Part shown: piece after piece, positions 5,708-55,837 of the stretch | Layout of the letters: every line of letters begins with the position of its first letter | Numbering within the stretch: the stretch's first letter is position 1 | Notes under the pieces: model-generated | Databases searched by the model: none | Told to the model about the DNA's origin: nothing | Seen by the model: the letters and a program-made list of their open reading frames with translations, nothing else | Made by a program: the position numbers and the translations under genes | Origin: a virus | Direction: 5' to 3' (one strand) | Length of the DNA stretch: 64,000 nucleotides | Virus record (IMG/VR): IMGVR_UViG_3300043436_003324

Positions 5708-5709
5708 AT

Positions 5710-6768
5710 TTATATTGTTTCTAATTTATTTAATTGGGATTCAAAACTTTCCAATCTTGTGTTTATTGCTCCATTAAAGAATTCAAGAACATCTGATTTA
5801 AATTTTTCTTCATTGGATAAATTTTCTGATGTTTTTTCCATGTTTAAATAAAGTTCAGGGTTAATATTGTCTTCTAACCAATTTTGGATAAAGTCGGCAA
5901 TTACGTCAGGTAACATATTTTTATTGTTAATCCAAACACCATTATCTTCTCCCATCCAATTTGGAACTAAGTTAGGTACTAAACCAATAACAGGGATCCC
6001 CATTTTAATTGATTCCAATGGGAAAGTTCCCCAACCACTAACCTCGTCAATCCAGACAGAAACAAAACTATCTTTCATTGCTTCGGCAAATTCTACTTCA
6101 GATAGACCTCTTAAATCTCTAAATGTTAACCATCTATATTGTGGGAATTTGACGTAAAAAGTTTTAATTAAATTTGTTGTGTCTCTATGGTCTCTTGTGT
6201 GAATTGAGATAATTGTCTTAGGTGGAAGTTCCTGTTTTTTAAATGTCTCAGAAATTTTAGGCTCAATTACATCCACAGAAACATTTCTAACAACATTCTT
6301 AATATATTCTTTTTGATTTTCAGATGTTGTTAAACATTTTAAAAACCCTAAAAGAGGCCATGTTTGTCCAGGTTGTAAAGTTTCAAAAATATAGTCATAA
6401 GATTGACAAAGAACAATTTTACCACAAGGTAAGTTTGTAATTTGATCCATAACGAAACCATAAATTTCAGGAATTACAATAAGATCTTCAGGAGAGACAT
6501 CTAAGTTAGTACCTTCAATTGCCTTATGAGGTAACTCAGTCATATACTCTTCACTAAGCCAACTTGATACTCCGAAGTAATCTGGTTTTTCGTGAAGGAT
6601 AATAGGGTTAAATCCTTCTTTTTTTAATTCCATCGCAATTTCGTAGATATATCTAACCGATGCCTTGGCATTTCCTTTAGTGTCTTGTACTAGAAAATAA
6701 ATTCTAGATTTTTTGTCTTTCATGTTTTGAATAGACCTTTCTAACTTTGTTATTTGTTCAGCATTCAT
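5710..6768 (-). CDS. Glycosyltransferase, GT-B (GT4-like)
   Basis: DLIVIPE, and a C-terminal GWGTFPLESIKMGIPVIG donor-binding motif (E-x7-E type). Confidence 0.65.
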   Translation of the reverse strand: MNAEQITKLERSIQNMKDKKSRIYFLVQDTKGNAKASVRYIYEIAMELKKEGFNPIILHEKPDYFGVSSWLSEEYMTELPHKAIEGTNLDVSPEDLIVIPEIYGFVMDQITNLPCGKIVLCQSYDYIFETLQPGQTWPLLGFLKCLTTSENQKEYIKNVVRNVSVDVIEPKISETFKKQELPPKTIISIHTRDHRDTTNLIKTFYVKFPQYRWLTFRDLRGLSEVEFAEAMKDSFVSVWIDEVSGWGTFPLESIKMGIPVIGLVPNLVPNWMGEDNGVWINNKNMLPDVIADFIQNWLEDNINPELYLNMEKTSENLSNEEKFKSDVLEFFNGAINTRLESFESQLNKLETI

Positions 6769-6771
6769 ATT

Positions 6772-7026
6772 TTATAATTTAGTTATTATTTTTTTCATTA
6801 ATAGGGTGTTAAACGCGATTTTAAAAGGTATTGATACCTCATTACTTTTTAATCCTAAATCTTCGTCAACTTCGTTACTTTCCGTGAGAACAGTTTCTAG
6901 CATCGATTTAATAACCTCATATTTTACTAAATGTATTTGAGGTTCTCCGCTAACAATCGCCAAATTGACATAGTCCTCCATTACGTCAAGATCAACATAA
7001 TAGTTTTCATTCAATATTTTAAACAT
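6772..7026 (-). CDS. Hypothetical protein (84 aa)
   Basis: ORF translationally coupled to neighbours. Confidence 0.6.
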   Translation of the reverse strand: MFKILNENYYVDLDVMEDYVNLAIVSGEPQIHLVKYEVIKSMLETVLTESNEVDEDLGLKSNEVSIPFKIAFNTLLMKKIITKL

Positions 7027-7678
7027 CGTAATTTATTTTTTTTAATTCCTCCTCAAATTCAGATAATGATTTAATCGTAAATTCTGAAGGTATGTGTTTA
7101 TTGTATTGGGTTTCATATTTTATTAAAATTTTATCCTCATACTTATTCAATAATAAGTCAGGGTTTGATGTAAGTAAAATATCAATTTCATTAAACATTT
7201 TATTTTTTGTTATTTCACTATAAAATAATACTTTTTCTATTAAACAACCAAACTTGGACAAAAAGAACAAAGATGATGGTTTTGACCTACCGATTTCATC
7301 TGAAACAATCATTAAGTCGTAAGTATCTCTTAAGTTATAGTAAATATCATTTAATATATTAAATGATAACATTTCACTAGATGGGGCATGACCAAACAAT
7401 TCCATCGTATACTCCTCATACATAAAAGAATATAAATCATCTTTTGATGGAAATGAAAAATGAGAACTTAAATCTAAAGATGTGACATCATTTAATATTT
7501 CATATTTAAATTGACTTTCCGCTAATTCTAATTCAGTGTTGCCGGAAAGATCCATCAAATACGTCTGATTAGTTTGGTCAACCTCACTTTTATCAATCAT
7601 ATGTTTTTCATAAAGTTGTGTAAATTTACCGATGGTGTCTCTAAGAACACCATTAATTTCAATCCCTATTCTCTTCAT
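7019..7678 (-). CDS. HAD-fold 5'(3')-nucleotidase-like protein with degenerate motif I
   Basis: KRIGIEINGVLRD corresponds to NT5C-type IGIDxDGVLxD but with E/N in place of the two Asp. Confidence 0.55.
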   Translation of the reverse strand: MKRIGIEINGVLRDTIGKFTQLYEKHMIDKSEVDQTNQTYLMDLSGNTELELAESQFKYEILNDVTSLDLSSHFSFPSKDDLYSFMYEEYTMELFGHAPSSEMLSFNILNDIYYNLRDTYDLMIVSDEIGRSKPSSLFFLSKFGCLIEKVLFYSEITKNKMFNEIDILLTSNPDLLLNKYEDKILIKYETQYNKHIPSEFTIKSLSEFEEELKKINYDV

Positions 7679-8396
7679 ACTTATCTAAAATTTGAGTAAT
7701 TAATGGGTTTCTAACATTTTTGGCGTCTTTAAAATCATAAAGACCAATTTTATTAACATTTTTAAATCTTTTCAATGCGTCATATAATCCTGATTGAGTC
7801 TTGTCTTTATATCGGTCAGTTTGTTCAAGATCCCCTGATATGAAGAATTTACTATTATAACCAATTCTTGTTACCAATAGTTTCATCTGATTAGGGGTTG
7901 AGTTCTGAGCTTCTTCAAAAATAAGAATTGAGTTATCGATATTCATACCTCTCATATATGCCAAAGCAAATACCTCAATGATATCGGCTTTTTTTAATTC
8001 TTCCCTTGCCTCTTTACCAATGATTTTATTTAAAAGGTAATACGAGGGAAAAATGTAAGGGTCTAATTTTTCTTCTAAGTTTCCAGGTAAAGATCCTAAT
8101 TTTTCTTCGGCTTCAACCGCAGGTCTAACAATAATTATTTTCTCGTAAGAGTTGTTCGGATCAATTAACAAATCAACCGCCGCCTTCATTGAAATGAAAC
8201 TTTTACCGACTCCTGCAGGTCCTGAACAAATTGTGATTTCTTTTTCTTTCAGAAGGTTATAATATTCTTCTTGATGGTCAGATAAAAATTTATTTTTTTG
8301 TTTCTTTTTTATTATTGTATTAATAAAATCTTTTTTGGAAATTGGTTGTGATGTTGGGGTTTCTTCTTTTTGTGGTACTATTTTTTTTCTTGTCAT
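7659..8396 (-). CDS. phoH: PhoH-like ATPase
   Basis: SGPAGVGKS Walker A, IVRPAVE, LGSLPGNLEEKLDPY, YMRG, EEAQN, GDLEQTD. Confidence 0.95.
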   Translation of the reverse strand: MTRKKIVPQKEETPTSQPISKKDFINTIIKKKQKNKFLSDHQEEYYNLLKEKEITICSGPAGVGKSFISMKAAVDLLIDPNNSYEKIIIVRPAVEAEEKLGSLPGNLEEKLDPYIFPSYYLLNKIIGKEAREELKKADIIEVFALAYMRGMNIDNSILIFEEAQNSTPNQMKLLVTRIGYNSKFFISGDLEQTDRYKDKTQSGLYDALKRFKNVNKIGLYDFKDAKNVRNPLITQILDKYEENRD

Positions 8397-8446: not shown

Positions 8447-9157
8447 TTATTTACCTCTCAGTTCATAACCTTCTTCATCGTGTCGACAAGTTAAGTCATT
8501 AATATATTTACTTTTTAATTTATTATTAACAATAAATTTAGAGACCCTACTCCAGTATTCCGCATCTCCAGGAGACCCAACTGTACCTGTTTCTTTAAAC
8601 AAATCAATATATCTTAATGGAATAGTTTTAATATTCATACAAACTGAAGAATGTATTACCCCGCAAGGAACGGGTAAAAAATCAATATACTTATCGTTAG
8701 ATGTTATTCTTGGTAAATATCCATTCTTATGGGTTGATTTGGTGATAATAAAATCTGTTTTATCATTATTAACTAATTTGGCTATCTCTTCTAAGTGGTT
8801 TGGATACCAAAAATCGTCGTGATTTAAAAAACAAACGTAATCTATATTTTCTTTTACACAAAGATCCATAGCGTAATTTGTGGCAAAAGTTCCGGCATAT
8901 GACCATAGAGCTTGTTTGTTATCGCCATATACATCCCTTTCGTGTGCGAATTCTAAATTCTCACAATAATTGTCGGTTAAACCTATTAATTTTTTATATT
9001 GGTTAAACTCAATTTCGTCTTCATATCTATCCCCTATTAAAAATATTTTATAATTTTTATATGTTTGGTTTAATACGGAATTTAGAGTATTTGTTAAATA
9101 CTCAATAGTCTTACCGTCTTTTCTTTTATATGTACAAATTATTACCCCTATTTTCAT
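8447..9157 (-). CDS. Glycosyltransferase family 2
   Basis: IGVIICTY start, YVCFLNHDDFWYPNHL DxD-like region. Confidence 0.8.
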   Translation of the reverse strand: MKIGVIICTYKRKDGKTIEYLTNTLNSVLNQTYKNYKIFLIGDRYEDEIEFNQYKKLIGLTDNYCENLEFAHERDVYGDNKQALWSYAGTFATNYAMDLCVKENIDYVCFLNHDDFWYPNHLEEIAKLVNNDKTDFIITKSTHKNGYLPRITSNDKYIDFLPVPCGVIHSSVCMNIKTIPLRYIDLFKETGTVGSPGDAEYWSRVSKFIVNNKLKSKYINDLTCRHDEEGYELRGK

Positions 9158-10323
9158 TTTTTTCCTTTTTTACAAACAAACATTATACTAGAACATAGAT
9201 CAGGATATTGTTGGCCTAATTTAAAACAACCATCCAAATATTCTTTAGAAATAATGTCAGTACTTAATAATCTGTCCCATTGAAAGTTGGCTAAAGCCTT
9301 AAAAAAAATTCCACTCCTATGTAAGATTTCTAAACCTGATTCTGTTATATCTCGTTCTAAAGTATCTAACGTATAGGTTATATTGTGTCCGTGTTTTTTT
9401 TCTGATTCGGTAATCGCATTATTGTTTGATATAAGACCCATTTTAACCGCAATTTGTCTGGACGGAGCATTTGCATTTGGACAAACAACAAATAAGACAC
9501 CGTCATCTGTTAACCAGTTATCGTTTATTTTTTTTAATAACCTTACAGGGTTATCTATATGTTCTAAAACATGAGTTAAAATAACGTTATCAAACTTTTC
9601 TGACATATTTAAATCCTCAAAAGTCGATAAGATAATGTTTACATCATTATTAAATTTTTTATTTGCAATCTTAACCGCATCTTCAGATCCCTCAATACAA
9701 GTTATTTTTTTAAAAAAAGGAATAATTTTTTCTGTAAAATCTCCTTTATAACTACCTAATTCTAAAACATTATCTCCTTTAAAAAAAGGGATAAAAGATT
9801 TAACCATGTAGTTGTGCATCACATCAAAATCAAAGTTGTAAGAGTATTTGTGATCTTTAGTGTCTAAAGATTCTTCATTATAATTTCTTGTTGTATCTAA
9901 TTTCATAATTAACTTATTTTCAGTTTGATCATTTATTTTAAATTTATTTCTTTTATAAAATTTAATAGCATTTAGGTTATTTTTAAATACTTCTAAGGTT
10001 ATTTCACAATAATTTTGAGATATTACATATTCTTTACAATTATATAATAGTTCTTTGGCAATACCATTTTTTTGATAATTGTACTCAACGCTTACATTAG
10101 TAATAAAGGATGTTTTATTTTTTGGGTTGGTGTATAGAACTAACAACCCAATTAAGTTGGAGTTATGGTAACATTCAAATCTTACTCCCTTATTATGTAA
10201 TTTTTTAGAATACATTTCTATGTCAACATAATCACCTAAACTTGGGGTAAATAGATTTGAGCATTTTTTTAAATGGTCTGTAATGTTCTCTAAACTAGAA
10301 TTATTTACTTTATACTCAAACAT
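9154..10323 (-). CDS. GNAT acetyltransferase fused to class I SAM-dependent methyltransferase
   Basis: N-half: ITNVSV..NYQKNGIAKELL...A..FY (GNAT); C-half: VLELGSYKG, FDNVILTHVLEH (methyltransferase). Confidence 0.85.
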   Translation of the reverse strand: MFEYKVNNSSLENITDHLKKCSNLFTPSLGDYVDIEMYSKKLHNKGVRFECYHNSNLIGLLVLYTNPKNKTSFITNVSVEYNYQKNGIAKELLYNCKEYVISQNYCEITLEVFKNNLNAIKFYKRNKFKINDQTENKLIMKLDTTRNYNEESLDTKDHKYSYNFDFDVMHNYMVKSFIPFFKGDNVLELGSYKGDFTEKIIPFFKKITCIEGSEDAVKIANKKFNNDVNIILSTFEDLNMSEKFDNVILTHVLEHIDNPVRLLKKINDNWLTDDGVLFVVCPNANAPSRQIAVKMGLISNNNAITESEKKHGHNITYTLDTLERDITESGLEILHRSGIFFKALANFQWDRLLSTDIISKEYLDGCFKLGQQYPDLCSSIMFVCKKGKK

Positions 10324-20418: not shown

Positions 20419-23274
20419 ATGGCGGGACAAAATATTAATCAATATGTGTTTCAAAAATATAAAATAAACACCGTTAATGAGTCAATGGATATGTCATTGT
20501 CGTCAGATGAAAGAGATTATAACGAGGAAGTTATTTTTTCTCCATACCTTATTGCGGAAACCTACGGTAATAAATTACCAATTAATATTGATATTAATAA
20601 TCCATTAACATCTCAAGGATTAATATTAAATTATAAAAATTTTAATTCTAATAATGTTTTTGTTTCTCAAAATTACTATAACCCAAACAATGAAGATCTA
20701 ACTTGTTTTTCATCATCAACATTATGTGATGTAGGTTTAACAGGTATAGATAATGGTTTGGTTGATAAAATGACGGGGGAGACCTTAAATTATACAAAAG
20801 GATTATATAATGATTTTTTAAAATTTGACAGATTACATTTTGATAGAAGAATTAAATTATTCCAAGTAACGGGACACACCCAAAGTAATAATAAATTTTC
20901 AGGAATTACAAAAGACACTCTTTATGAGGTTGTAAGTAAAAACGATCCTCAGTTTGGTAAGTACCATGAATTGTACGGTGGTTTCTACCAAGGATTTTAC
21001 AAACTATTTGGATTTGATTATGAGGTTTTACCTGAAAGATCTTCTAAAGGTTGGTCGGTAGAAATGTTATTAAGACCTAGATTTGTTAATGAATACAATC
21101 CATTACCTACTGAAACAACTCTTAATGAGATGTACCCAAAAAATAAAAATACGTTTTTTTATTTTGGTACAAGAGCCGAAAATAAATTTTACCATCATGC
21201 TGATGGACACCCAAATTGTTTAACTGGTTATACAAGAGTTACTAATTCATTAAGTGGTTGTCCGTCAACATGTGCTTGTTGTGATAGAACAGTTACGGAT
21301 AGTAGATGTGTTTATGTTTACCCACCAAGATCTTATAATAACCAACATGATCCACATTTAAATTATGGATGTCCACTTTGTGGTGGGGACAAAAAAATCT
21401 CACTAACATGTGGTTGTGGTTGTAATGAAAGTTCATGTGAAACTTGTGGGTGGGAATGTCAAATACATAATTGTGAAACAGTAATTTTACCAACACCTAC
21501 CCCGTCACCAACACCAACACCTACCCCGTCATGTGAAACACAAACACCGGTATGTACACCAACCTGTACTAAATGTGAAACGTGCGATGAGTGTACAACT
21601 TGTGGACCAACGGGTTTTACTTCTATTGAGTACACATGTGAGACTGATCCATTGTTTGATGTTATGTCAAATAATATATCGTTTAAACTTTGTGGTGATG
21701 TGAAAAACCCACAGATTGGTGTAAAGGTATTAAGGTTTACTGGTGGTTGTGAAACAACGGGAACTTGCGTAACGGGTAAAACATATGTTACAGGATATAC
21801 TATTGATGAATATTGTTCACCACCAATTTATCCTTATTGTGAAATTGTTAACCCTGATTTCTTAAATGAGGAGCATTGGTTTTTAGTTAACGTAACTTGG
21901 GAAAGATATTCATGGTTTGATTTCTGCGATTTAAAATTTTATGGAGGTTTGTTTGACATTACTAAATTTGAATACTTGGAATCTTTGGCAAACAACAGTG
22001 TTGAATTAATAAGACCTCCTTTAACCCATAACAATAAAAGCGGAGAATTAATAGAATTAGTTAACTTAAATGAAACTTGGTTAGATGAAAAAAAACATAG
22101 ATTAGGAAGATTAAAGATTTATGTTAACGGTAAAAAAATATATACAATAGAGGACTTTGAAGAAGTAATACCAAGAGGTTTGTTTACCGATAAAGAAAAA
22201 CAAATAGGGGTTCCTTTTAATATCTCTTGGGGTGGTGGAACACAAGGATTACATGAAAATTTAACTTTTTCATCTTGTTCTGCGTTAACATCAAATTACA
22301 TACAAGATCCAGAATGTTTACCTAATAATATATTAAGTGGTACTACTTTATCGGGGTTAAGTACTAACATACTACTTGAACAAAATTTCGGGGGAACCTT
22401 TGATGGGGGGATATCTCAGTTCAGATTTTATATTGAACCTTTAGAATCCGACGAGATCAAACATAATTTTAAATTGTTGAAAGATAAATTTATTTTATTT
22501 GATCCTGATTGTCCTGATTGTGATACTAAATTTTGTAAGACAAATGATTTAACATATCAGATAAATGATGTTGTTACAAGTACAACAACAATAAATTCTT
22601 TACCACATAGTTTAGGTAGGGTTTATATTGAGGACAAAAGAGATTTAAATTATCTTATAAAAAACAACCAACGAACACTCCAACAAATATCAACACCACC
22701 AAAAGTTTTAACTCAAAGGTATTGGGACGCCAATGGATGGTGGGGAGATCAAGGAAACACACCTCAATGTGTTGGGTATTCGTGGTCACATTGGTTAGAA
22801 GATGGTCCTGTACAACAATCAGGAATTCCACCAATAATTAAACCTTTTGATATTTACAAGAACGCACAAAAATTAGACCAGTGGATTGGCGAAAATTATG
22901 AAGGAACATCGGTTCGTGGTGGTGTAAAATATTTAAAAAATATTGGTAAAGTAAAATCATATTATTGGGCATTTGATGTACAAACATTGTCTGAAACAAT
23001 TTTAAAATTAGGTCCTGTGGTTGTTGGGACTAATTGGTATAATGGAATGTTTTATCCTAATAAAACTGGGTTAATTAAAATTAGTGGACAGATGGTTGGT
23101 GGTCATGCCTACTTAATAAATGGTGTTGACACAAAAACAAAACAATTTAGAATAAAGAACAGTTGGGGTAAATCTTGGGGTAATGGTGGACATGCGTTTA
23201 TTTCGTTTAATGATATGTCAAGGTTAATAAAAGAAAATGGAGAAATCTGTTTGGCAATTGAATTAGGAAGTTAA
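20419..23274 (+). CDS. Large virion-associated protein: LamG/ConA-like scaffold with Cys-rich and PT inserts, plus a C-terminal papain-like (C1A) cysteine peptidase
   Basis: GGWSVE-type strands, LKIYVNG, FDGGISQFRFY..PL (LamG-like); DQG...QCVG, GGHA, KNSWG papain catalytic motifs from 22606. Confidence 0.75.
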   Translation: MAGQNINQYVFQKYKINTVNESMDMSLSSDERDYNEEVIFSPYLIAETYGNKLPINIDINNPLTSQGLILNYKNFNSNNVFVSQNYYNPNNEDLTCFSSSTLCDVGLTGIDNGLVDKMTGETLNYTKGLYNDFLKFDRLHFDRRIKLFQVTGHTQSNNKFSGITKDTLYEVVSKNDPQFGKYHELYGGFYQGFYKLFGFDYEVLPERSSKGWSVEMLLRPRFVNEYNPLPTETTLNEMYPKNKNTFFYFGTRAENKFYHHADGHPNCLTGYTRVTNSLSGCPSTCACCDRTVTDSRCVYVYPPRSYNNQHDPHLNYGCPLCGGDKKISLTCGCGCNESSCETCGWECQIHNCETVILPTPTPSPTPTPTPSCETQTPVCTPTCTKCETCDECTTCGPTGFTSIEYTCETDPLFDVMSNNISFKLCGDVKNPQIGVKVLRFTGGCETTGTCVTGKTYVTGYTIDEYCSPPIYPYCEIVNPDFLNEEHWFLVNVTWERYSWFDFCDLKFYGGLFDITKFEYLESLANNSVELIRPPLTHNNKSGELIELVNLNETWLDEKKHRLGRLKIYVNGKKIYTIEDFEEVIPRGLFTDKEKQIGVPFNISWGGGTQGLHENLTFSSCSALTSNYIQDPECLPNNILSGTTLSGLSTNILLEQNFGGTFDGGISQFRFYIEPLESDEIKHNFKLLKDKFILFDPDCPDCDTKFCKTNDLTYQINDVVTSTTTINSLPHSLGRVYIEDKRDLNYLIKNNQRTLQQISTPPKVLTQRYWDANGWWGDQGNTPQCVGYSWSHWLEDGPVQQSGIPPIIKPFDIYKNAQKLDQWIGENYEGTSVRGGVKYLKNIGKVKSYYWAFDVQTLSETILKLGPVVVGTNWYNGMFYPNKTGLIKISGQMVGGHAYLINGVDTKTKQFRIKNSWGKSWGNGGHAFISFNDMSRLIKENGEICLAIELGS

Positions 23275-23873
23275 TGAGTACAAGTATTACAATAGAAAGT
23301 ATTAATTTTATTGGGGAAAGTGTTACAGTACTTTTCAAACCCGATAACGATTTGGTTACAATTAATTTGGGTCCAATAACTCTACCGTTTATATTTTTTC
23401 CGGCTTCTTTAAACCCACCAAGAGAAGTATATGGAACATACACAATATTAGTGGATGAAAATAAATGTGTTAACATACTTAATGTTCCAAGAGTTACGCC
23501 AACACCAACACCGACGATTACTCCAACAAGAACTCAAACACCAACACCAACACCTACTAACACTCCAACAACGACTTTGGATCCTTGTAAAGTACCAACA
23601 CCAACACCTACGGTAACGCCAACAATAAGTTTAACTCCAACAATAACACCTACACCAAGTGCGACTTGTACTAATCCTTGTGGGTGTGGTGACCCAACAC
23701 CAACACCAACAGTTAAACCACCTAAACCAACACAAACTTGTACAAACCCTTGTGGATGTACCCCAACACCTACACCAACAGGAACTAATACTCCTATTTT
23801 TATATTTTATATTACCGGTGAAAACGGGAATAGGATATTGTCGGAAATAAGTGAGTACATAATTGCAGAATAA
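23274..23873 (+). CDS. Pro/Thr-repeat virion protein with small N-terminal beta domain
   Basis: About half the protein is (PT)n, with two CTNPCGC repeats. Confidence 0.7.
   Translation: MSTSITIESINFIGESVTVLFKPDNDLVTINLGPITLPFIFFPASLNPPREVYGTYTILVDENKCVNILNVPRVTPTPTPTITPTRTQTPTPTPTNTPTTTLDPCKVPTPTPTVTPTISLTPTITPTPSATCTNPCGCGDPTPTPTVKPPKPTQTCTNPCGCTPTPTPTGTNTPIFIFYITGENGNRILSEISEYIIAE
23500..23780 (+). repeat. Degenerate (ACACCA)n hexamer tracts encoding Pro-Thr repeats
   Basis: ccaacaccaacaccgacg..., caaacaccaacaccaacacctact..., gacccaacaccaacaccaaca. Confidence 0.85.
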
Positions 23874-25879: not shown

Positions 25880-27127
25880 ATGAAAATTTTTATACAAATT
25901 GCGTCTTATAGGGACCCACAATTAATACCAACAATCAAAAATTGTGTAGACAACTCAAAAAATCCACAGAATTTAGTTTTTTCAATTGCAAGACAATTTA
26001 ATCCTGAAGATAAGTTTGATGATCTCTCAGAATTTGAGTCCGATAAAAGATTTAAAATTTTAAACATTCCTTATCAAGAATCAAAAGGAGTTTGTTGGGC
26101 AAGAAATCTAACTCAACAACAATATGATGGTGAAGAATATACTTTACAGATAGATTCCCATATGCGTTTTGAAAAGGATTGGGATCAAACTTTAATTGAC
26201 ATGATTAAAGATTTACAAACCAAAGGTCATAAAAAACCATTATTAACTGGTTATGTGTCGTCTTTTGATCCTGACAATGATCCCCAAGGTAGAGTTTTAG
26301 AACCGTGGAGAATGACGTTTGACAGATTTACACCTGAAGGTTGTGTCTTCTTTCTTCCTGAAGTTATACCTAATTGGAAAAACCTAACGGAACCAATACC
26401 ATCAAGATTTTACTCGGCTCACTTTTGTTTCACATTAGGAGAATTTTCAAAAGAAGTTCAACACGATCCCGAATATTATTTTCACGGAGAAGAAATCTCA
26501 ATTGCCGTAAGGGCCTATACTCATGGATATGATTTATTTCATCCACATAAAATTGTTATTTGGCATGAGTACACAAGAAAAGGTAGAACAAAACAATGGG
26601 ACGACGATAAAGAATGGTATAAGAAAAATGAATCATCACATTCTAAAAATAGAAAACTTTTAGGTGTTGATGGTGAAATATTAAACGAGGAGATTGGAAT
26701 CTATGGGATGGGAACAGAACGTACCGTTACAGAGTACGAAAAATACTCAGGCATACTATTTTCAAAAAGAGCGGTACAACAATATACAATAGATAAGAAA
26801 TATCCACCAAACCCATACGATTATAAGAACGAGGAAGAATGGATTAATAGTTTCTCAATGATCTTTAAACATTGTATTGATGTTTCATTTAACGATGTTC
26901 CAGAAAATGATTATGAGTTTTGGGTTGTTGCATTTCACAATGAAAAAGATGAAACGCTCTTTAGAAAAGATGCGGACACAGGAGAAATTCTTAGGATGAA
27001 ACAAGATCCTGACGGATATTGTAAAGTATGGAGAGAGTTTAACACAACAGAGAAACCAAAGTACTGGGTTGTTTGGCCGTACTCAAAATCAAAAGGATGG
27101 TGTAATAGATTAACGGGAAATTTATAA
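25880..27127 (+). CDS. GT60-like polypeptide N-acetylglucosaminyltransferase (Gnt1/OGNT family)
   Basis: IFIQIASYRD, GVCWAR, YTLQIDSHMRF..DWD, FHGEEISIAVRAYTHGYD are the Gnt1-family signature. Confidence 0.85.
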   Translation: MKIFIQIASYRDPQLIPTIKNCVDNSKNPQNLVFSIARQFNPEDKFDDLSEFESDKRFKILNIPYQESKGVCWARNLTQQQYDGEEYTLQIDSHMRFEKDWDQTLIDMIKDLQTKGHKKPLLTGYVSSFDPDNDPQGRVLEPWRMTFDRFTPEGCVFFLPEVIPNWKNLTEPIPSRFYSAHFCFTLGEFSKEVQHDPEYYFHGEEISIAVRAYTHGYDLFHPHKIVIWHEYTRKGRTKQWDDDKEWYKKNESSHSKNRKLLGVDGEILNEEIGIYGMGTERTVTEYEKYSGILFSKRAVQQYTIDKKYPPNPYDYKNEEEWINSFSMIFKHCIDVSFNDVPENDYEFWVVAFHNEKDETLFRKDADTGEILRMKQDPDGYCKVWREFNTTEKPKYWVVWPYSKSKGWCNRLTGNL

Positions 27128-29833: not shown

Positions 29834-30778
29834 ATGGAATTCTTTATTAAGAAAAACGCTACATTACCAATTTTAAAAATGCAAGTTGTTAAAGATGGTC
29901 GTAGTGATTTCAATAAAATGATGGGACTAATCGAAAATTCTGCCATATTCTTTTCTATGGTGGATATAGAAACAGGTATTCCTAAAATTACAACTAGACC
30001 TGCGGGGTTTGTATCTAAAAAAATGTTAGACCCAAATGCCGATCCTGAATATTATGTTTACTATCAATTTACAAATAAAGACACAAGAAAAGTTGGTAGG
30101 TATGAAGGCCAATTTCTATTAAGAAATGAAGATGGTGTTTTAATATTACCAATAAGAGATAAGTTATTTATTAACATACAAGAAAGTTTTATTGCGGAAG
30201 ACCTTCCATATGACAGTTGTTATGTTAGTGAATTTCCTTGTTGTATTTTACCAACCCCCACACCATCACCAAACCCCACACCAATAGTAACAACTACAAC
30301 AACATTTCAACCAACACCAACACCTTCACCATTACCTTTAGAGGTTGTTTTGGAAGCAATAATCACATCAGGATCAACAATAATAGATTATAATCTTACG
30401 TCAAATATTCAATTTGATGAACCAATATTAATTTATTTTAATCATACTCTTAATGTTTACACGGGTTCTCCAATAAATATTACAACAGGAGTTACAATAT
30501 CTGTTGGGGAAATTTCTGGAAATACACGAGTTATTTTAGATGAAAATTTTAATAATTTAACAAGAATAGATAGTTTTGGTAATATAATTACCTACCCAAA
30601 CCCTCTTAATTTTACTATAACAGAAAATTACCCAATTACACCAACACCAACACCTACTATAACGCCAACACCAACTCCAACACCAGTTGACGTATTAATT
30701 AATCCTATAATAACTGAGAACGATTATTATATAATAATTGGGGATAACGAATATTTTAAATTCGTAGATCCAATATAA
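29834..30778 (+). CDS. Virion adaptor-like protein (Ig/BppU-like N-domain) with Pro/Thr repeats
   Basis: FFIKKNATLPILKMQ...G.YEGQF N-domain; two PT tracts; late motif 29812-29818. Confidence 0.6.
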   Translation: MEFFIKKNATLPILKMQVVKDGRSDFNKMMGLIENSAIFFSMVDIETGIPKITTRPAGFVSKKMLDPNADPEYYVYYQFTNKDTRKVGRYEGQFLLRNEDGVLILPIRDKLFINIQESFIAEDLPYDSCYVSEFPCCILPTPTPSPNPTPIVTTTTTFQPTPTPSPLPLEVVLEAIITSGSTIIDYNLTSNIQFDEPILIYFNHTLNVYTGSPINITTGVTISVGEISGNTRVILDENFNNLTRIDSFGNIITYPNPLNFTITENYPITPTPTPTITPTPTPTPVDVLINPIITENDYYIIIGDNEYFKFVDPI

Positions 30779-30810
30779 AATTTAAAAGATATTTATAAAA
30801 TAAAAAGATT

Positions 30811-32394
30811 ATGGCATTAACAGGTAAAACAATTGGAGAATTAGAATTTCTACAATTCCCAAATAACGAAACATTACTCCCTGTAGAATACAGTGGGGAT
30901 ACTTATCATATTGCATTTTCGTCAATTACATACAACGAGGGAACATATTCACAGTTTGTTGCGGAAGCCAATTCGGGTGTATTAACACCAGGTAGATTTT
31001 ACTTGATGACCGATTATCAAACTTGTTATGACCAACCAAACTATGATACTAATGGCATCCCAATAACGATTGGTAATTATAAGACAGGAACAACAGAACC
31101 TATATTATTGTTGGCAATTTCAACAACAGGATTCTCCCCTACAGTTTATTCAACACTATATCCACAAGATAAAATCTCTTATGATATTACTTGGAATGCA
31201 ACTGAAGTTACAGATAATCCTGCTAAAGGTAGAATTACTGAAAGAATTGACGAGTTTAATAACAGAACAGATTATGACCATAGACAAGTGGTATTTAAAC
31301 GATACGAAACATCACCTTCAAGTGGTATTTATACAGTAATTAAAGATAATGGGAATCCTTACATTGATGATATTCCAACTTTTGGAACAGGTTGTTATTC
31401 TAATAAAATAGGGAACTTTTATACCACCTTAGATTTAAACAATACAGGTTTTATTTTATCAAATAATATATTTGATGATGATTGTTGGGACAATACAACA
31501 GGGGCAGATTTTTATAATAATACAATCGGTTCAATAGTTTATGAAAATAAATTTGGGGATTCATGTCATGATAATGTGATAGAAGGAGATGCTTATAACA
31601 ATGTGGTAAATAACAACTTTAGTTTAAACACAATAGGTGGTCAATTTTATAATAATACCATATTCAATGGATTTAGATTAAATGTGATAGGGTCACAATT
31701 TGGAGGAAATGAAATTTTAAGTGGATTTAGAGAAAATCAAACATCTGCAGGATTTGCTAAAAATAGAATTGGTTATGATTTTAGAAATGTAGGTATAACT
31801 ATTGGAACAAACTTTTTAGATAATCAAATAGGGAACAATTTTACTGATAATATTGCTATTGGAGATGACTTCCAAAATAATGTGATAGGTAACAATTTTC
31901 AAGAAAATAACATTGGAAATGGATTTTTTTCAAATCAAATAGGAATCCTATTTAATAATAACACTTGTTATGGTTCATTTGCATATAACACCATAGGAGC
32001 TTATTTTAGTTATAATGAAGTACAAGATGGGTTTGGTTATGGAGCATCTGCACTACAAGGTAATAGAATCGGGAATAATTTTTACAATAATATCATTGGC
32101 GAATATTTCTACAATAATATTATTCCTGATAACTTTTACAATAACACAATTGGCGATTCATTCCAATGGAATATTGTTAATACTGAAGTTAATAATGTTT
32201 GTTTAAGTACAGGTATGTTATATGATATCACAACAGTTAATGTATTCAAAAATAAAAATGGAGATAATAGATTATCGTATTACGATGAAGTGGATGTTCT
32301 AACAATAGAAACATTAACTGAAGCTCCTTGTTTAGGTGGGTTAAACGTATTAGACATACCAGAAAATGATTTAAATTTCGGATTAATATTATAA
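30811..32394 (+). CDS. Fibre/adhesin with Asn-rich 11-residue repeats (F-x-x-N-x-I-G-N), probable beta-solenoid
   Basis: More than 15 consecutive repeats; paralogous to 35008-38229. Confidence 0.7.
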   Translation: MALTGKTIGELEFLQFPNNETLLPVEYSGDTYHIAFSSITYNEGTYSQFVAEANSGVLTPGRFYLMTDYQTCYDQPNYDTNGIPITIGNYKTGTTEPILLLAISTTGFSPTVYSTLYPQDKISYDITWNATEVTDNPAKGRITERIDEFNNRTDYDHRQVVFKRYETSPSSGIYTVIKDNGNPYIDDIPTFGTGCYSNKIGNFYTTLDLNNTGFILSNNIFDDDCWDNTTGADFYNNTIGSIVYENKFGDSCHDNVIEGDAYNNVVNNNFSLNTIGGQFYNNTIFNGFRLNVIGSQFGGNEILSGFRENQTSAGFAKNRIGYDFRNVGITIGTNFLDNQIGNNFTDNIAIGDDFQNNVIGNNFQENNIGNGFFSNQIGILFNNNTCYGSFAYNTIGAYFSYNEVQDGFGYGASALQGNRIGNNFYNNIIGEYFYNNIIPDNFYNNTIGDSFQWNIVNTEVNNVCLSTGMLYDITTVNVFKNKNGDNRLSYYDEVDVLTIETLTEAPCLGGLNVLDIPENDLNFGLIL

Positions 32395-32421
32395 ATAAAT
32401 AAAAAATAAAAAAACAAAAAA

Positions 32422-33498
32422 ATGATACAAGGAATTAGAATAACAAGCACAAATTTATCAGGACTAACGGCAAACGTTACTTTTTATCCCACAACTGGTG
32501 GGTCAGAAAATTTAGGATCTGAAGTAATACCATTTAACAATATTTCGGATTATCCTTACGGAACATACGAATTAGACGTTCCGTTATATGATAGAATGTA
32601 TGAAATAAATGTTCCAGCACCATTAACAGGTCAGAGCGCATATACTCAAACAGTAAGATCGGTTACCGTTGACGGAGGATACCAACCATTCTCAGGAGCG
32701 GTATTATCTGAAGTATGGGGAACATATACAACACAATATATTACAGATGAAGGAATACCATCAACTGATATTGTTTTAGCTGAAGGTATTTGTTCTGATG
32801 ACGTTGATGCGTCAAAAGTACCTGGAAATATTGGTGGATGGCCAAATAGTATTAATTCATTTTTAGGACCATTTATGTCAGGTGGATTGGCGGGTTATCC
32901 GTTTGTTGGTAGTGTTGGGTTTGGAGCCTTTTCAAGTCACGTAGCAACAACTCTTGATGGAACCTTGTTTGTAACGAGTATGCCACACATTGGTGTTACT
33001 GAAGATGGTCGTTCAGGTAGAATGTTACGTAGAGGTAAAGCCGATAGTAGTACAGATAATACTTGTGGTGCCGTTGCGGGAGCAATTGACCAAGTTGTAA
33101 ATGTATTATCTAATGCTCCAAATCAAAATAATGCACCTTTTAATAATGGTAATTATTCTTTTTGGAAATTAACTGATATTTTATGGCCACACAAATATTC
33201 ATTATCAAATTTTACAGGTACTACTGAAGAAGTATATAATAAACAAATGATTTTAGCAACTGAAATAATTAGAGATTCTGCTTATGATTATATTATTGCA
33301 AATTTACCTGCAGCAACCGAAGCAAACACTGAGAATGACGTATATTTTTTAAGTGGTATTTTTATTAATAGTGATGTTAGTTCGGGTACAACACAATTTG
33401 AATCATATGTTGTTGTTGATAAAGTTATGAAATATGTGTTTGATGATCAGTGGTATGATATAACGGTTGATTATATGGCTGGATTACCAATTGACTAA
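32422..33498 (+). CDS. LCIB/theta-type beta-carbonic-anhydrase-like protein fused to an N-terminal virion module
   Basis: ICSDD (Cys124), GGLAGYPFVG..GF.AF..H, MPHIG..EDG..G...R.G (His189), TCGA (Cys215): Cys-His-Cys Zn triad pattern. Confidence 0.8.
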   Translation: MIQGIRITSTNLSGLTANVTFYPTTGGSENLGSEVIPFNNISDYPYGTYELDVPLYDRMYEINVPAPLTGQSAYTQTVRSVTVDGGYQPFSGAVLSEVWGTYTTQYITDEGIPSTDIVLAEGICSDDVDASKVPGNIGGWPNSINSFLGPFMSGGLAGYPFVGSVGFGAFSSHVATTLDGTLFVTSMPHIGVTEDGRSGRMLRRGKADSSTDNTCGAVAGAIDQVVNVLSNAPNQNNAPFNNGNYSFWKLTDILWPHKYSLSNFTGTTEEVYNKQMILATEIIRDSAYDYIIANLPAATEANTENDVYFLSGIFINSDVSSGTTQFESYVVVDKVMKYVFDDQWYDITVDYMAGLPID

Positions 33499-33518: not shown

Positions 33519-34733
33519 ATGGCAACAAAATATATAGTAAATAACTTATCAGGTCAAACAATAGATGGTGATATAACTATCAACGGAAATTTAAGTGTTA
33601 CCGGGGTTACAACAGGAAGTTTATCAACTTACAAAGCACTATTAACTCAGTTAGGGGTTCAGACAGGTACCGAATTAATTGATTTTAATGATGGTTTAAT
33701 TATAGGTGAAACCTATACAATAACTGATTATGTTAGTGATGATGATTTTAGTAATATTGCTAATGTAATTAGTGGTGGTGTTCTTACATATAGTTATAGT
33801 GGAACGTCAGTAACCGGATTTACTAGCACATATGATTCTGGTGGTGCCACAAGTGGTGAAGGTTCTGGTGTTGAGTTTGAAATTTATATAAACAATGATG
33901 TTTATGAATCAATCAGTATCGTTAACCTTGGTTATGGATATGCAAGTGGTGATACAATAACGATATTGGGTACAAATGTTGGGGGTATCAGTCCAGATAA
34001 CGACATAACAATAACAGTTGATAGTGTGACTACCAATAACCCTAACGTAACAGGTTGTGCATTCATTGCAACAGGAGAAATACCAACAAATTGGAGTAAC
34101 GGTTCTACTTTAGTATCTAGCGGTAATTTAGTGGTGACAGTATTAGAAAACAATTTGGGATTTGACATTGAGTGGGTTGAGGAAATTTTTGGGTCAGGAA
34201 TTTATTTCGGATATAATTCAACCACAGGACCATTGTATAATACTTTTAATAGAAACACAACATTTGTTTTAAATGGTTCAAATCCAAATCCGTATTTTGG
34301 TCCTAACCTATTAGAAACTTTTGTAGGTCCTATAAGTTTATCCGAGAAAGATGAAACAATTGTTGTTGCGGTTTTTGATACGGATATACTTGAACCAGTT
34401 GGTGATAGTTTGTATTATTTTCCTATAGAGATTCAACAACAAAATACCGACACAACACCAATTGTAATAAGTGGAACTGTAGAATCATCATTTCCTATTA
34501 ATTTTACTAGTATTGCTTTGTTTTGTAATGGAAATTACATTCAAGCACTTTACGGGGATGGTACAGTAAATGATATGTCAGAACTTATAACTTACTTAAA
34601 CTCTTTACCAAATATGAGTTATTTAGGTACATACTCTAATGATGGAGATGGAGTTCTTTTAGAAATGTCAACCAATTTAGTAAATCAATTCTGTTCTAGT
34701 GGAACATTAACTTTTGAGGTCTTCAACGACTAA
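33519..34733 (+). CDS. Putative fibre/structural protein
   Basis: GDITINGNLSVTG shaft motif, YKALLTQ, GYGYASGDTITILG..GG..P.NDITITV repeat typical of myovirus structural proteins. Confidence 0.6.
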   Translation: MATKYIVNNLSGQTIDGDITINGNLSVTGVTTGSLSTYKALLTQLGVQTGTELIDFNDGLIIGETYTITDYVSDDDFSNIANVISGGVLTYSYSGTSVTGFTSTYDSGGATSGEGSGVEFEIYINNDVYESISIVNLGYGYASGDTITILGTNVGGISPDNDITITVDSVTTNNPNVTGCAFIATGEIPTNWSNGSTLVSSGNLVVTVLENNLGFDIEWVEEIFGSGIYFGYNSTTGPLYNTFNRNTTFVLNGSNPNPYFGPNLLETFVGPISLSEKDETIVVAVFDTDILEPVGDSLYYFPIEIQQQNTDTTPIVISGTVESSFPINFTSIALFCNGNYIQALYGDGTVNDMSELITYLNSLPNMSYLGTYSNDGDGVLLEMSTNLVNQFCSSGTLTFEVFND

Positions 34734-35007: not shown

Positions 35008-38000
35008 ATGGCAAATAAAAAAATATCAGACTTACCTTACGTTGGTAATACGGGGTACACCTCAATAGACATAATACCTATTGTAAATTATGATGTACCC
35101 ACAGGAACAACTAAACACACACCTATTTTAGATTTTGCAAGTTACATTTTAAGTGCAACACCTGTAAGTTACTCAAGTTTATTTACTTTAATGTTCACTA
35201 GTAACCTAACTCAAGGTTCTTATTATCTAATAGAAGATTTTAAAACATGTTATGATCAACCTGATTTTGATTATAATGGAAACCCAATTACTTCTGGAAA
35301 TTATAAACAAGGTCCTGTTGAGCCAATTGTAGTATTGGCCACAAGTATTAATACAATTAGTCCTGTTGCTTATCAACCAATACACCCTAACGACTTTATA
35401 CGTTATGATATAATGTATAATACAACTGAAGTTACTAATGGTGTTGCCTTTGGTAGGATTACTGAAAGAATTGATGAGTTTAATAATAGGACTGATTATG
35501 ATCATAGAAATATTTTATTTAAAAGATATAAATTATTTACATATAGAGACGAGTTAAGATTAAATGGTACAATTGAGTTATTAAGTAATGGTACAGTTAA
35601 TGGTGTTGATACTTCTTTCACTTCTCTGTCGGTAGGTGATGTTATTTATATACCTAATACTTACCCTAGTTATTATGAAATAACAGGAATTACCGACAAT
35701 GTAACTATGAACGTGTCAGGTGACACTATAACGGCGATTGGTGCGGGTCAAAGTTTTTATCTTACAATAGAAGAAACTAACGGTAATGGTTACTTTAGTC
35801 ATAAAAGAACAAACGTTAGATCAAACGATTACGAACAGTACACCACTTTTGGGGATGCAATATTAAATGATTATGCAAAAAATAACTATATAGGTAATTA
35901 CACAAATAACTATACAAATGTTAGTAGTGGAACATTCTTACTACCAAACAATGTATTTTTAGAAGGACAATACGAAAGTAATAAATTTGGTGATTACTGT
36001 TACAATAATACGTTTGGAACTGACAATCAAAATAACGTTTGGGGTGATTTGTGTTACAATAACGTTTCAACAAATGATATTGATGATAATATAATTGGTA
36101 ACAATTTTCATGATAACCTAATAAACGCAAATTTAATCTCTAACCATATTGGTAATGATTTTAATAATAACCAATTATTGGGTGAGAATAGTAATGTCAA
36201 TGATTTTCAAGACAACATTATTGGAAATGGGTTTAGTAACAATCTTATTTATTCTGAGTTTTATAAAAATGAAATATTAGATGACTTTCAAGATAATTTA
36301 ATTGGTGACTTTGGTAACTTAGATAATTTTGAATTTTATAGAAATTATATTCGTAACGGATTTGGAAAAAATACAGTAAGACAAAATTTCCAAAATAATC
36401 AAATCGGTACAAACTACCAAGAGAATACTATTAATGGGTCATCTCAAGGAAACACAATACTTAATGGGTTTAATAAAAATAAAATTGGGTCTGACTTTAA
36501 TGTCAATCTTATTGGTAATGGTTTTAATTATAATACAGTTAATGATAGTTTTTATAATAATGAAACTAAATATTATTTTAATGGGAATATAATCCCTAAT
36601 CAATTTTTCAACAATAAAATAGGGCAGTACTTTGAAAATAATCAACCAATTAATACTCTTTTTGGTTGGGGTGATTTATCTAATATCACGGGTAGAACTT
36701 ATGATATTTTTAATGATTCTTTAGGTGGCTCTATTGATTATAGAATCTTAGGTAAAGAATTGGTAATGAAAGTTACATCCACATCTCAGTATTTTAAAAT
36801 TAAATTTAATCAATGGACATTAGATGGTAACGGAGGAGGTTTCCAATACGAAAGAACTGAAATGGATTCACTTGGTAATAACATAGGACCTACAGTTACA
36901 TTTACAAAAAGAAATGGTGTTAATGATATTGATATTATTATACCAGGAGTCTTGGAAATCGCTAGAGATAATAGTGGGGCAATTTATAATATTGCAACAG
37001 AAGGATCGTGGAATAGTTCTGTAAGTCCACAAGACACAGAATGGAATTCAGTATATACCGAACCTAATAGCGGTGTCAGATTTTCAAGTAATAAAATAGG
37101 TGATTTTTTCATAGAAAATAAATTTGATAATGATTTTGGTTATGGTGCTTCACAAAATCAGGGTAACGTAATAAATGATTCTTTTCAGAAAAATTTGATT
37201 GGTCAATTTATGTACAATAATGTTATAGGTAATTACTTTACCAACAATATTATCGGTGATAACTTTGAGGCTAACTCAATTAACAATTATTTTAATAGTA
37301 ACTCTATTGGAAATGCATTTGAAAATAACACCATTAAAAATTATTTTATAGGAAACTCTATATTAAATGGTTTTGAAAGTAATGAAATTGGTAACTACTT
37401 TGGGAATGATGGTTCGGGTCCTGGTTCACCAGTTCAAAATATTATTTTTAGTGATTTTAAATACAACAAGATTGGTAATTTCTTTGGTAATGACACTAAT
37501 TTCCCTTCAGTTGGTGGTGGTACAAACGGTGACGGTGGAAACATCATAAACACTGGCTTCCAATTTAACGTGATTGGTGATAATGTGTTATTTAACGCAT
37601 TAAACCTAAACTTCACTAATAATAAAATTGGTAACGACTTTTGGTTTAACGTATTTGGTCAAAACACATCAGATAATACAATAGGTAATTTATTTGTCGG
37701 TAACTCAGGTATCGGTGGATTCCCAACTGAAATTGGTGGTAACTTTATATCTAATAACTTGGGTAACTACTCATCATTTAACGAAATTGATACAAACTTC
37801 CAATATAACAAAATAGGTAATTTCTTTGGTAACGCTGGTGGTGGAACACAAAATATTATTTCTACTGGATTTAACAATAACAATATCGGTAATTACTTTG
37901 GTGATGACGGTTCTCAAATTAGTGGGGGTAATAATATTGGGATTAACTTTACATTGAATGAAATTGTTTCTCTTTTCTATTCCAACACTATTGGTGATGA

Positions 38001-38229
38001 CTTTAACAACAACACATTGAGTAATGGCTTCTTAGAAAACACAGTGGGAAATGACTTCAAAAGAAATCAAATAGACTACTCACCAAATAGTATAGATTTC
38101 ACAACGGGACCAGCAACTCACGTATACGGTGATTATAACTGTACAATATTCAAAAGACCTGATAGTACATTAAGATTATCTTACTACAATAACTCAGATG
38201 TATTAAACATAACAAACATTGACGCATAA
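35008..38229 (+). CDS. Long fibre/adhesin with Asn-rich 11-residue solenoid repeats and an inserted globular module
   Basis: KISDLP N-terminus; GRITERIDEFNNRTDYDHR block identical to the 30811 gene; dozens of N-x-I-G-N-x-F repeats. Confidence 0.75.
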   Translation: MANKKISDLPYVGNTGYTSIDIIPIVNYDVPTGTTKHTPILDFASYILSATPVSYSSLFTLMFTSNLTQGSYYLIEDFKTCYDQPDFDYNGNPITSGNYKQGPVEPIVVLATSINTISPVAYQPIHPNDFIRYDIMYNTTEVTNGVAFGRITERIDEFNNRTDYDHRNILFKRYKLFTYRDELRLNGTIELLSNGTVNGVDTSFTSLSVGDVIYIPNTYPSYYEITGITDNVTMNVSGDTITAIGAGQSFYLTIEETNGNGYFSHKRTNVRSNDYEQYTTFGDAILNDYAKNNYIGNYTNNYTNVSSGTFLLPNNVFLEGQYESNKFGDYCYNNTFGTDNQNNVWGDLCYNNVSTNDIDDNIIGNNFHDNLINANLISNHIGNDFNNNQLLGENSNVNDFQDNIIGNGFSNNLIYSEFYKNEILDDFQDNLIGDFGNLDNFEFYRNYIRNGFGKNTVRQNFQNNQIGTNYQENTINGSSQGNTILNGFNKNKIGSDFNVNLIGNGFNYNTVNDSFYNNETKYYFNGNIIPNQFFNNKIGQYFENNQPINTLFGWGDLSNITGRTYDIFNDSLGGSIDYRILGKELVMKVTSTSQYFKIKFNQWTLDGNGGGFQYERTEMDSLGNNIGPTVTFTKRNGVNDIDIIIPGVLEIARDNSGAIYNIATEGSWNSSVSPQDTEWNSVYTEPNSGVRFSSNKIGDFFIENKFDNDFGYGASQNQGNVINDSFQKNLIGQFMYNNVIGNYFTNNIIGDNFEANSINNYFNSNSIGNAFENNTIKNYFIGNSILNGFESNEIGNYFGNDGSGPGSPVQNIIFSDFKYNKIGNFFGNDTNFPSVGGGTNGDGGNIINTGFQFNVIGDNVLFNALNLNFTNNKIGNDFWFNVFGQNTSDNTIGNLFVGNSGIGGFPTEIGGNFISNNLGNYSSFNEIDTNFQYNKIGNFFGNAGGGTQNIISTGFNNNNIGNYFGDDGSQISGGNNIGINFTLNEIVSLFYSNTIGDDFNNNTLSNGFLENTVGNDFKRNQIDYSPNSIDFTTGPATHVYGDYNCTIFKRPDSTLRLSYYNNSDVLNITNIDA

Positions 38230-49845: not shown

Positions 49846-49895
49846 ATAAATAGTTTGATATAAGTAAAGTTTTTGCGGAAAACACCGGTATTTAT
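49846..49895. promoter_or_regulatory. Divergent TATTTAT pair for the RHH gene (-) and the sheath gene (+)
   Basis: ATAAATA 49846-49852 and TATTTAT 49889-49895. Confidence 0.55.
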
Positions 49896-54257: not shown

Positions 54258-54286
54258 TAGAAAAATTTTTTCTACCGTATATTTAT
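54258..54286 (+). promoter_or_regulatory. 8-bp palindrome plus TATTTAT late motif upstream of tail tube
   Basis: TAGAAAAA-T-TTTTTCTA 54258-54274; TATTTAT 54280-54286. Confidence 0.5.
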
Positions 54287-55810: not shown

Positions 55811-55837
55811 AATAGGTATTTATAAAATAAAAAGAAT

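Follow-up and report, generated by a model that had tools for sequence, protein, structure and literature searches.

Where would a carbonic anhydrase encoded by a phage act, inside the infected cell or on the phage particle? The question is raised by a gene in a 64,000 nucleotide stretch of viral DNA (IMG/VR record IMGVR_UViG_3300043436_003324, hereafter the window), the product of which was described in an initial annotation as an LCIB/theta-type carbonic anhydrase (CA) grafted onto a virion docking module. LCIB/theta CAs are known as parts of algal CO2-concentrating mechanisms. Our analysis supports this description of the open reading frame (ORF 32422) in so far as its product has the LCIB/theta-type CA fold, retains the complete zinc site and is joined to a widely shuffled N-terminal module (N-module). 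The gene and its two parts are located as follows.

32422..33498, + strand: whole gene, encoding the N-module and the LCIB-type CA domain (358 aa).
32422..32619, + strand: N-module, residues 1-66, a six-strand beta-sandwich (metagenomic recurrence, model).
32632..33495, + strand: LCIB/theta-CA domain, residues 71-358 (Pfam, PDB profile search, Foldseek, dN/dS 0.22).

The window has a GC content of 30% and encodes a 1109-aa tail sheath protein, a tube protein, a baseplate hub, a wedge subunit and a head-tail adaptor, together with a family-B DNA polymerase (PolB) and a helicase; no tRNAs were found in it. Orthologues of the LCIB protein with 80-94% identity were present on contigs of up to 320 kb, from which we conclude that the window derives from an uncultured jumbo myovirus. 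A megablast search with 6 kb of the window returned no near relative among GenBank phages, and tblastn searches of 50,697 GenBank phage records, for which the queries were the window protein and a divergent homologue (L081), gave no match, so that no cultured relative came to light. The nearest virus record in the collection searched, G001, is a 26-kb fragment that lacks an LCIB gene. Shine-Dalgarno-like 4-mers are scarce, occurring in only 3 of 52 genes, and the leaders are 55% A, which is in keeping with translation initiation of the Bacteroidota type. As the nearest cellular LCIB homologues are also mostly from Bacteroidota, these leaders are a weak hint that the host belongs to this group.

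The assignment of the protein to the LCIB/theta type was borne out by comparisons of both sequence and structure. Pfam family LCIB_C_CA (PF18599) matches residues 104-334 with an E-value of 2.6e-29 and a score of 102.5 bits, against a cut-off of 25. Among PDB sequences, a phmmer search with the ORF 32422 protein retrieved 6kfs (E 2e-12) and PtLCIB4 (5b5y, E 3e-9), and a profile built from 19 viral-type homologues (A2) matched PtLCIB4 with an E-value of 2.7e-27 across residues 14-272 of 284, approximately the whole chain. An AlphaFold2 (AF2) model of the 358-aa protein (pLDDT 86.8, pTM 0.82) has a beta-CA-like alpha/beta fold that is superposable on the solved LCIB proteins, with a Foldseek E-value of 4e-15 and a target TM-score of 0.82 to 6kfs and 5b5y. 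The domain had been thought to span residues ~115-358; the LCIB domain itself stands but its start does not, as homology to full-length bacterial proteins places this at approximately residue 71, immediately past the N-module. The ORF 32422 protein is thus an LCIB-family protein that lies outside the canonical beta-CA family PF00484, for which there was no Pfam match at E <= 0.1. Canonical beta-CAs such as E. coli CynT2/Can and H. influenzae HICA have the same superfold and type of zinc ligand, but are only weak structural matches to ORF 32422 (Foldseek E 2e-4 or weaker, TM 0.4-0.5). Both the LCIB part (median dN/dS 0.22) and the N-module (median dN/dS 0.30) are under purifying selection.

The Cys-His-Cys triad that had been read from the motifs ICSDD, MPHIG and TCGA was recovered as C124, H189 and C215, which align to Cys46, His102 and Cys126 of PtLCIB4. 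These residues and the other features of the active site are encoded at the following positions.

32791..32799, + strand: C124-S125-D126 codons, comprising the first zinc ligand, a Ser (Arg in the PtLCIB4 S47R chain) and a conserved Asp (alignments).
32803..32844, + strand: virus-specific insert, residues 128-141, with invariant N136 and G138 (alignment, AF2 model).
32938..32940, + strand: H173 codon, equivalent to PtLCIB4 His88 (Ala at this column in the H88A chain).
32986..32988, + strand: H189 codon, second zinc ligand (alignments).
33028..33030, + strand: R203 codon, a conserved Arg, the first of the RRG motif (alignments).
33064..33066, + strand: C215 codon, third zinc ligand (alignments).

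Because the PDB includes S47R and H88A mutant chains of PtLCIB4, the alignment columns could be fixed exactly, with S125, D126 and H173 equivalent to Ser47, Asp48 and His88, respectively. C124, D126, H173, H189, R203, C215 and all of the glycine-rich motifs are invariant in 23 of 23 diverse viral and 19 of 19 bacterial sequences. Every known active-site residue is present in the window protein (C124, S125, D126, H173, H189, R203 and C215): the second-shell residues D126, H173 and R203 have been kept, and the equivalent of position 47 is Ser (S125) rather than Arg, the S47R change being one that reportedly abolishes activity. By alignment, C124, H189 and C215 would be the residues that bind zinc. 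The insert at residues 128-141, which follows the first zinc ligand, is absent from bacterial homologues and forms a lower-confidence loop in the AF2 model.

The closest solved relatives are PtLCIB4 and PtLCIB3 of Phaeodactylum tricornutum and related LCIB-family (theta-CA) proteins (PDB 5b5y, 6kfs and 9vzj), which share with ORF 32422 the PF18599 family, the fold, the Cys-His-Cys ligands, the Asp, the His88-equivalent and the Arg; wild-type PtLCIB4 likewise has Ser, not Arg, after the first Cys. In contrast to these proteins, ORF 32422 (only 17-22% identical to them over the structural alignment) belongs to a phage-only branch, carries the insert after the first ligand and is fused to an N-terminal beta-sandwich in a tailed-phage gene, with no phototroph and no CO2-concentrating-mechanism context. 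Chlamydomonas LCIB/LCIC (PDB 5k5w and 5b5x) belong to the same family and have the same zinc-site architecture, but stand further away from ORF 32422, with a Foldseek TM-score of 0.68 and profile E-values of 1e-8 to 5e-10; they surround the pyrenoid in the chloroplast and show no activity in vitro (PMC5876011).

Among cellular proteins, the nearest homologues found (26-35% identity) consist of the LCIB domain alone, at ~240 aa, without add-ons or signal peptides, and come mostly from Bacteroidota. Those of Lacibacter, Flectobacillus rivi, Flavobacterium caeni and Chitinophaga are examples and have the invariant residues in common with the viral proteins, including ICSDDV, but at ~240 aa they have neither N-module nor insert, and they are set apart by a long branch with 100% support. 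A bestrophin-type anion channel gene adjoins the bacterial LCIB gene in 4 of 7 genomes checked, and a PEP carboxylase gene does so in one. The bestrophin genes (family PF25539) lie beside LCIB in Flectobacillus, Flavobacterium caeni, Chitinophaga and Hymenobacter (L086, L096, L109 and L120, at ~4800-7700), while the PEP carboxylase gene adjoins the LCIB-like gene of a Prolixibacteraceae genome (L121, 4660-6657). These neighbours point to inorganic-carbon metabolism and support a real role in CO2/bicarbonate chemistry for the cellular family. Algae pair bestrophin with LCIB, and the bacterial adjacency parallels this arrangement.

LCIB relatives are encoded on 150 contigs of IMG/VR, and the viral proteins carry lineage-specific N- or C-terminal add-ons. 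The fusion of the N-module to LCIB has been kept in ~50 viral loci, with identities from 93% down to 45%. Other viral architectures include bare proteins of ~310 aa, proteins with different N-terminal domains of 90-120 aa, a 776-aa form with a long C-terminal body, forms with a C-terminal extension of ~100 aa, and tandem pairs. The tandem LCIB-type pairs belong to another phage lineage (L069, 9605-11729; L073, 9581-11647; L074, 5323-7389) and consist of a copy of ~401-406 aa with an N-terminal domain of 100-120 aa, followed by a copy of 285-299 aa. A quick maximum-likelihood tree, built from viral and bacterial sequences only, the latter picked through a common motif, split 23 viral from 19 bacterial domains by one long branch (SH-aLRT 100), such that the viral LCIB domains appear as a phage-only branch within this set. 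We found no paper describing phage LCIB proteins, their phage-only branch or the N-module.

The second part of the protein, the N-module, was traced in metagenomes. In an exhaustive search of 1.8 billion representatives, dozens of metagenomic proteins of 83-702 aa were found to start with a stretch that is 50-64% identical to residues 3-75; the module begins at residue 1-3 of these proteins, and their bodies differ. The cargo includes Pro/Thr linkers, a DUF5122 beta-propeller, a Laminin_G_3 (ConA-like) lectin domain and unassigned bodies of ~690 aa, so that one N-module is found with many cargoes; N-module genes are clustered, at 2-4 per block, in L001, L009 and L028. The N-module is thereby supported as a real and widely shuffled N-terminal module. 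Within the window it occurs a second time.

23274..23873, + strand: paralogue, with N-module residues 1-72 (loop-insert subtype), a Pro/Thr tract of ~100 aa and a short C-terminal strand (profile match).

The similarity between the N-termini of ORF 32422 and ORF 23274 had been noticed by eye and proved weak in a pairwise BLASTP comparison (E 0.074, not significant), for which reason a profile was needed. A profile of 31 metagenomic N-termini searched against the 419 six-frame ORFs of the window matched ORF 23274 with an E-value of 9.6e-10, the next match having an E-value of 0.036, and returned no other significant match among them.

Modelled alone, the N-module is a six-strand beta-sandwich (pLDDT 81.7). 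A fold search retrieved generic Ig/FN3-like sandwiches only, with a best Z-score of 6.1 (VIA-align), and a search of BFVD structures returned nothing below E 0.03; structural comparison of this half therefore gave a beta-sandwich and no specific relative. The C-terminal domains of type-9 secretion proteins (Z 5-6) were among the sandwiches retrieved and, being generic, were not taken as homologues. Searches of PHROGs, Pfam and the PDB with the N-module and its cargo proteins returned no known family of fibres, spikes or baseplate proteins; PHROGs gave PT-linker matches to an unnamed family only, and a PDB sequence search with the protein P0171 gave no match. In having a constant extreme N-terminus, variable C-terminal cargo, paralogues clustered in a hypervariable block and a beta-sandwich fold, the N-module proteins resemble the modular appendage proteins of phages (tail fibres and tailspikes) and Ig-like decoration domains. 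They differ from known phage anchor and Ig families in that the N-module has no sequence match or specific structural match to these and the cargo here is a metabolic-type enzyme.

The gene had also been said to sit among fibre genes, a description for which inspection of its neighbours gave no confirmation. ORFs 30811 and 35008 match no fibre family in PHROGs, Pfam or the PDB, and the tail module becomes recognisable only 16 kb downstream of the LCIB gene, with PolB and helicase genes in between. The two neighbours are repeat-rich, solenoid-like and mutually related (30811-32394 and 35008-38229); they have in common an N-terminal domain of ~130 aa (E 4e-45 overall), bodies of NNxIG-type repeats and a similar C-terminal end, and PDB sequence searches linked neither of them to a known family. 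Many relatives retain the C-terminal peptide of the upstream gene, ...IPENDLNFGLIL, next to LCIB, including relatives in which the body of the protein is a different one. The LCIB protein and ORFs 23274, 30811, 33519 and 35008 had no match in PHROGs, apart from the PT-linker matches to the unnamed family, and searches of PHROGs, Pfam and the PDB likewise did not link ORF 33519, the downstream neighbour, to a known fibre, spike or baseplate family.

33519..34733, + strand: downstream neighbour of the LCIB gene, encoding 404 aa, of which the final ~83 are similar to an extension found C-terminal to LCIB in L058 and P0122.

The C-terminus of ORF 33519 aligns to the extension of the L058 protein (L058, 10037-11236) end to end with a pairwise E-value of 4e-4, both finishing in VFND. 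The L058 and P0122 proteins may be a fused form that links two neighbouring genes, LCIB and an ORF 33519-like gene. The short metagenome contigs that encode P0121 and P0122 gave no informative gene context.

In the lineage of the window the LCIB gene is the last of a variable plus-strand block, shortly before PolB. The block contains a LamG-papain protein, N-module genes, a glycosyltransferase cassette, ORF 29834-like genes and solenoid proteins, and its flanking members differ in presence between relatives. It is opened by a 951-aa protein (20419-23274) with a C-terminal papain-like peptidase (PF00112, E 5e-7; phrog_16701, E 5e-55) that has the same position in many relatives. A GlcNAc-transferase-like protein (25880-27127; PF11397, E 2e-72), encoded among Pro/Thr-rich proteins, is 42-47% identical to proteins of the Xanthomonas/Stenotrophomonas jumbo phages XacN1, Xoo-sp13, CM1 and RAS14. 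ORF 29834-30778 (314 aa), the counterpart of which immediately precedes LCIB in many relatives, has an N-terminal domain of ~125 aa that gave no Pfam match and two Pro/Thr tracts; the pattern of its N-terminus recalls the N-terminal Ig-like baseplate domains of the BppU type.

The position of the gene was also compared in other phages. At 8 loci of one myovirus lineage, a head-tail adaptor gene is followed, after further genes, by LCIB, an 82-aa gene, sheath, tube and hub; at 11 loci of another, portal and major capsid come first, then LCIB, then a virion structural protein and a short-tail-fibre-like protein, with other genes between them. A second graft was also identified: in the LCIB protein of L064, residues 1-59 match the N-terminus of a 307-aa protein of L062, a sister phage, with 83% identity (E 4e-28). 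In L062 the gene for the 307-aa protein is directly upstream of an unfused LCIB gene. The fused LCIB gene (L064, 9833-10957) lies between adaptor and sheath genes; the L062 counterpart is at 8902-9825. By this comparison the L064 protein acquired its N-terminus in a recent module transfer from a neck-region protein, independent of the N-module fusion.

A promoter-like motif was found upstream of many genes of the window and, in an imperfect form, upstream of the LCIB gene.

32385..32404, + strand: degenerate version, aatattataaataaataaaa, of the promoter-like motif, lacking one T of the consensus ATATTTATAAA; it overlaps the stop codon of ORF 30811.

The perfect motif, ATATTTATA, is present 12-55 nt upstream of 15 of the 53 window genes, among them the sheath, tube and adaptor genes, the tail genes at 55838 and 57883 and six members of the LCIB block, but not PolB, the helicase or the sugar cluster on the minus strand. 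Examples of the form (A/G)TATTTATA are at 30790-30796, 49889-49895, 54280-54286 and 55817-55823. In many orthologues, and in other architectures, the perfect motif precedes the LCIB gene by 15-25 nt. Over the whole window TATTTAT is no commoner than expected (63 occurrences, 64 expected), and it departs from random only in its placement before gene starts. The motif is probably a late promoter of this phage group that is conserved in distant relatives, and its sharing with the tail genes suggests that the LCIB gene is transcribed late.

The reading we prefer is that the protein is an LCIB-type zinc enzyme, competent in catalysis, which an exchangeable adaptor at its N-terminus tethers to the virion; taken as a whole, we give this reading about an even chance of being correct. 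The product would be a two-part late protein. Its residues ~71-358 would form a zinc-binding LCIB/theta-type CA domain, probably a dimer by analogy with other LCIB and beta-CA proteins, that most likely still catalyses the reaction CO2 + H2O <-> HCO3- + H+. Residues 1-66 would form a small beta-sandwich adaptor, found at the extreme N-terminus of many otherwise unrelated proteins of the phage group, the most likely role of which is to dock cargo onto a conserved part of the virion, so that the enzyme would ride on the particle. Virion mounting is the best-supported reading because homologues are found inside morphogenesis modules and because the N-terminal graft of L064 is independent. The synteny in other phage lineages, the common promoter-like motif and this second graft strengthen the case for display on the virion, and the add-ons of the viral copies, as against the bare cellular proteins of ~240 aa, and the retention of the fusion in ~50 loci also speak for it; the LCIB protein is thus probably attached to the virion. 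Against mounting on the virion count the generic nature of the N-module sandwich, the lack of annotated fibre, spike or baseplate matches for the cargo and flanking genes, the 16 kb to the tail module and the degenerate motif of the window copy. In addition, a beta-CA-type dimer fits poorly with the trimeric symmetry of fibres, late regions can contain non-structural auxiliary genes and, on physical reasoning, a few enzyme molecules per free particle could hardly alter bulk carbonate chemistry.

The alternative that best survives these data is a cytoplasmic auxiliary metabolic enzyme, a soluble CA made late in infection to supply bicarbonate or CO2 to the carboxylations of host nucleotide, amino-acid and lipid synthesis, with the N-module serving solubility, oligomerisation or intracellular targeting only. 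We regard this as possible though on the unlikely side. It accounts well for a set of catalytic residues that is wholly intact and under purifying selection, for cytoplasmic-looking, standalone nearest cellular relatives in Bacteroidota with bestrophin (4 of 7) or PEP carboxylase (one) genes beside them, and for the location of the window gene a short way upstream of replication genes. However, it leaves unexplained why viral copies have repeatedly gained N-termini in common with Pro/Thr-stalk, lectin, propeller or neck-region proteins, and why, in other lineages, LCIB genes have adaptor and sheath genes, or capsid and fibre-like genes, on either side; nor is it favoured by the long, fully supported branch that sets the viral clade apart from the sampled bacterial sequences.

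The LCIB fold could instead have been recruited for structure or ligand binding, without catalysis, as the oligomeric head at the distal end of an appendage; its zinc site would then provide stability or bind an anion or other ligand. There is precedent in the recombinant Chlamydomonas LCIB homologues, which have the fold and zinc site yet show no activity (reviewed in PMC5876011), and the virus-specific insert with invariant N136 and G138 directly after the first zinc ligand, the long branch to the cellular enzymes and the shuffling of the domain in the manner of a fibre module would all suit such a head. We nevertheless consider it improbable, as the second-shell residues D126, H173 and R203, which are relevant only to catalysis and are usually lost in recruited binding domains, are invariant, and Ser125 has been kept where the PtLCIB4 S47R chain has Arg. 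Least probable is that CO2 is not the substrate and that the zinc site hydrolyses COS, CS2 or some other small molecule: the Cys-His-Cys site is indeed retained in COS and CS2 hydrolases of the beta-CA fold, and the insert near the active site could reshape its entrance, but there is no positive evidence for such a substrate and the closest solved relatives are CA-type LCIB proteins.

The preferred reading, a CA carried on the virion, can be extended to LCIB-type CAs as genuine virion components in several lineages of uncultured, probably freshwater myoviruses, placed near the neck or on appendages and active, catalytically or allosterically, outside the cell; in this broad form we think the proposal a long shot. 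A virion CA could sense CO2, bicarbonate or pH and so gate fibre deployment or ejection, or could act on the carbonate chemistry of the host envelope.

For the LCIB/theta family, these data add a large phage-only branch on 150 IMG/VR contigs, in which a complete active site is kept under purifying selection and the domain has repeatedly become linked to modules of the phage attachment type and located within head-tail gene modules. The N-module, an orphan that has been widely shuffled, is useful in itself as a handle by which candidate appendage proteins of uncultured giant phages can be recognised. Should the enzyme work in the cell, it would represent a new type of auxiliary gene, for inorganic-carbon supply in heterotrophic hosts; should it be borne on the particle, it would constitute a new class of virion-associated activity, and these proteins would be the first virion-borne carbonic anhydrases.
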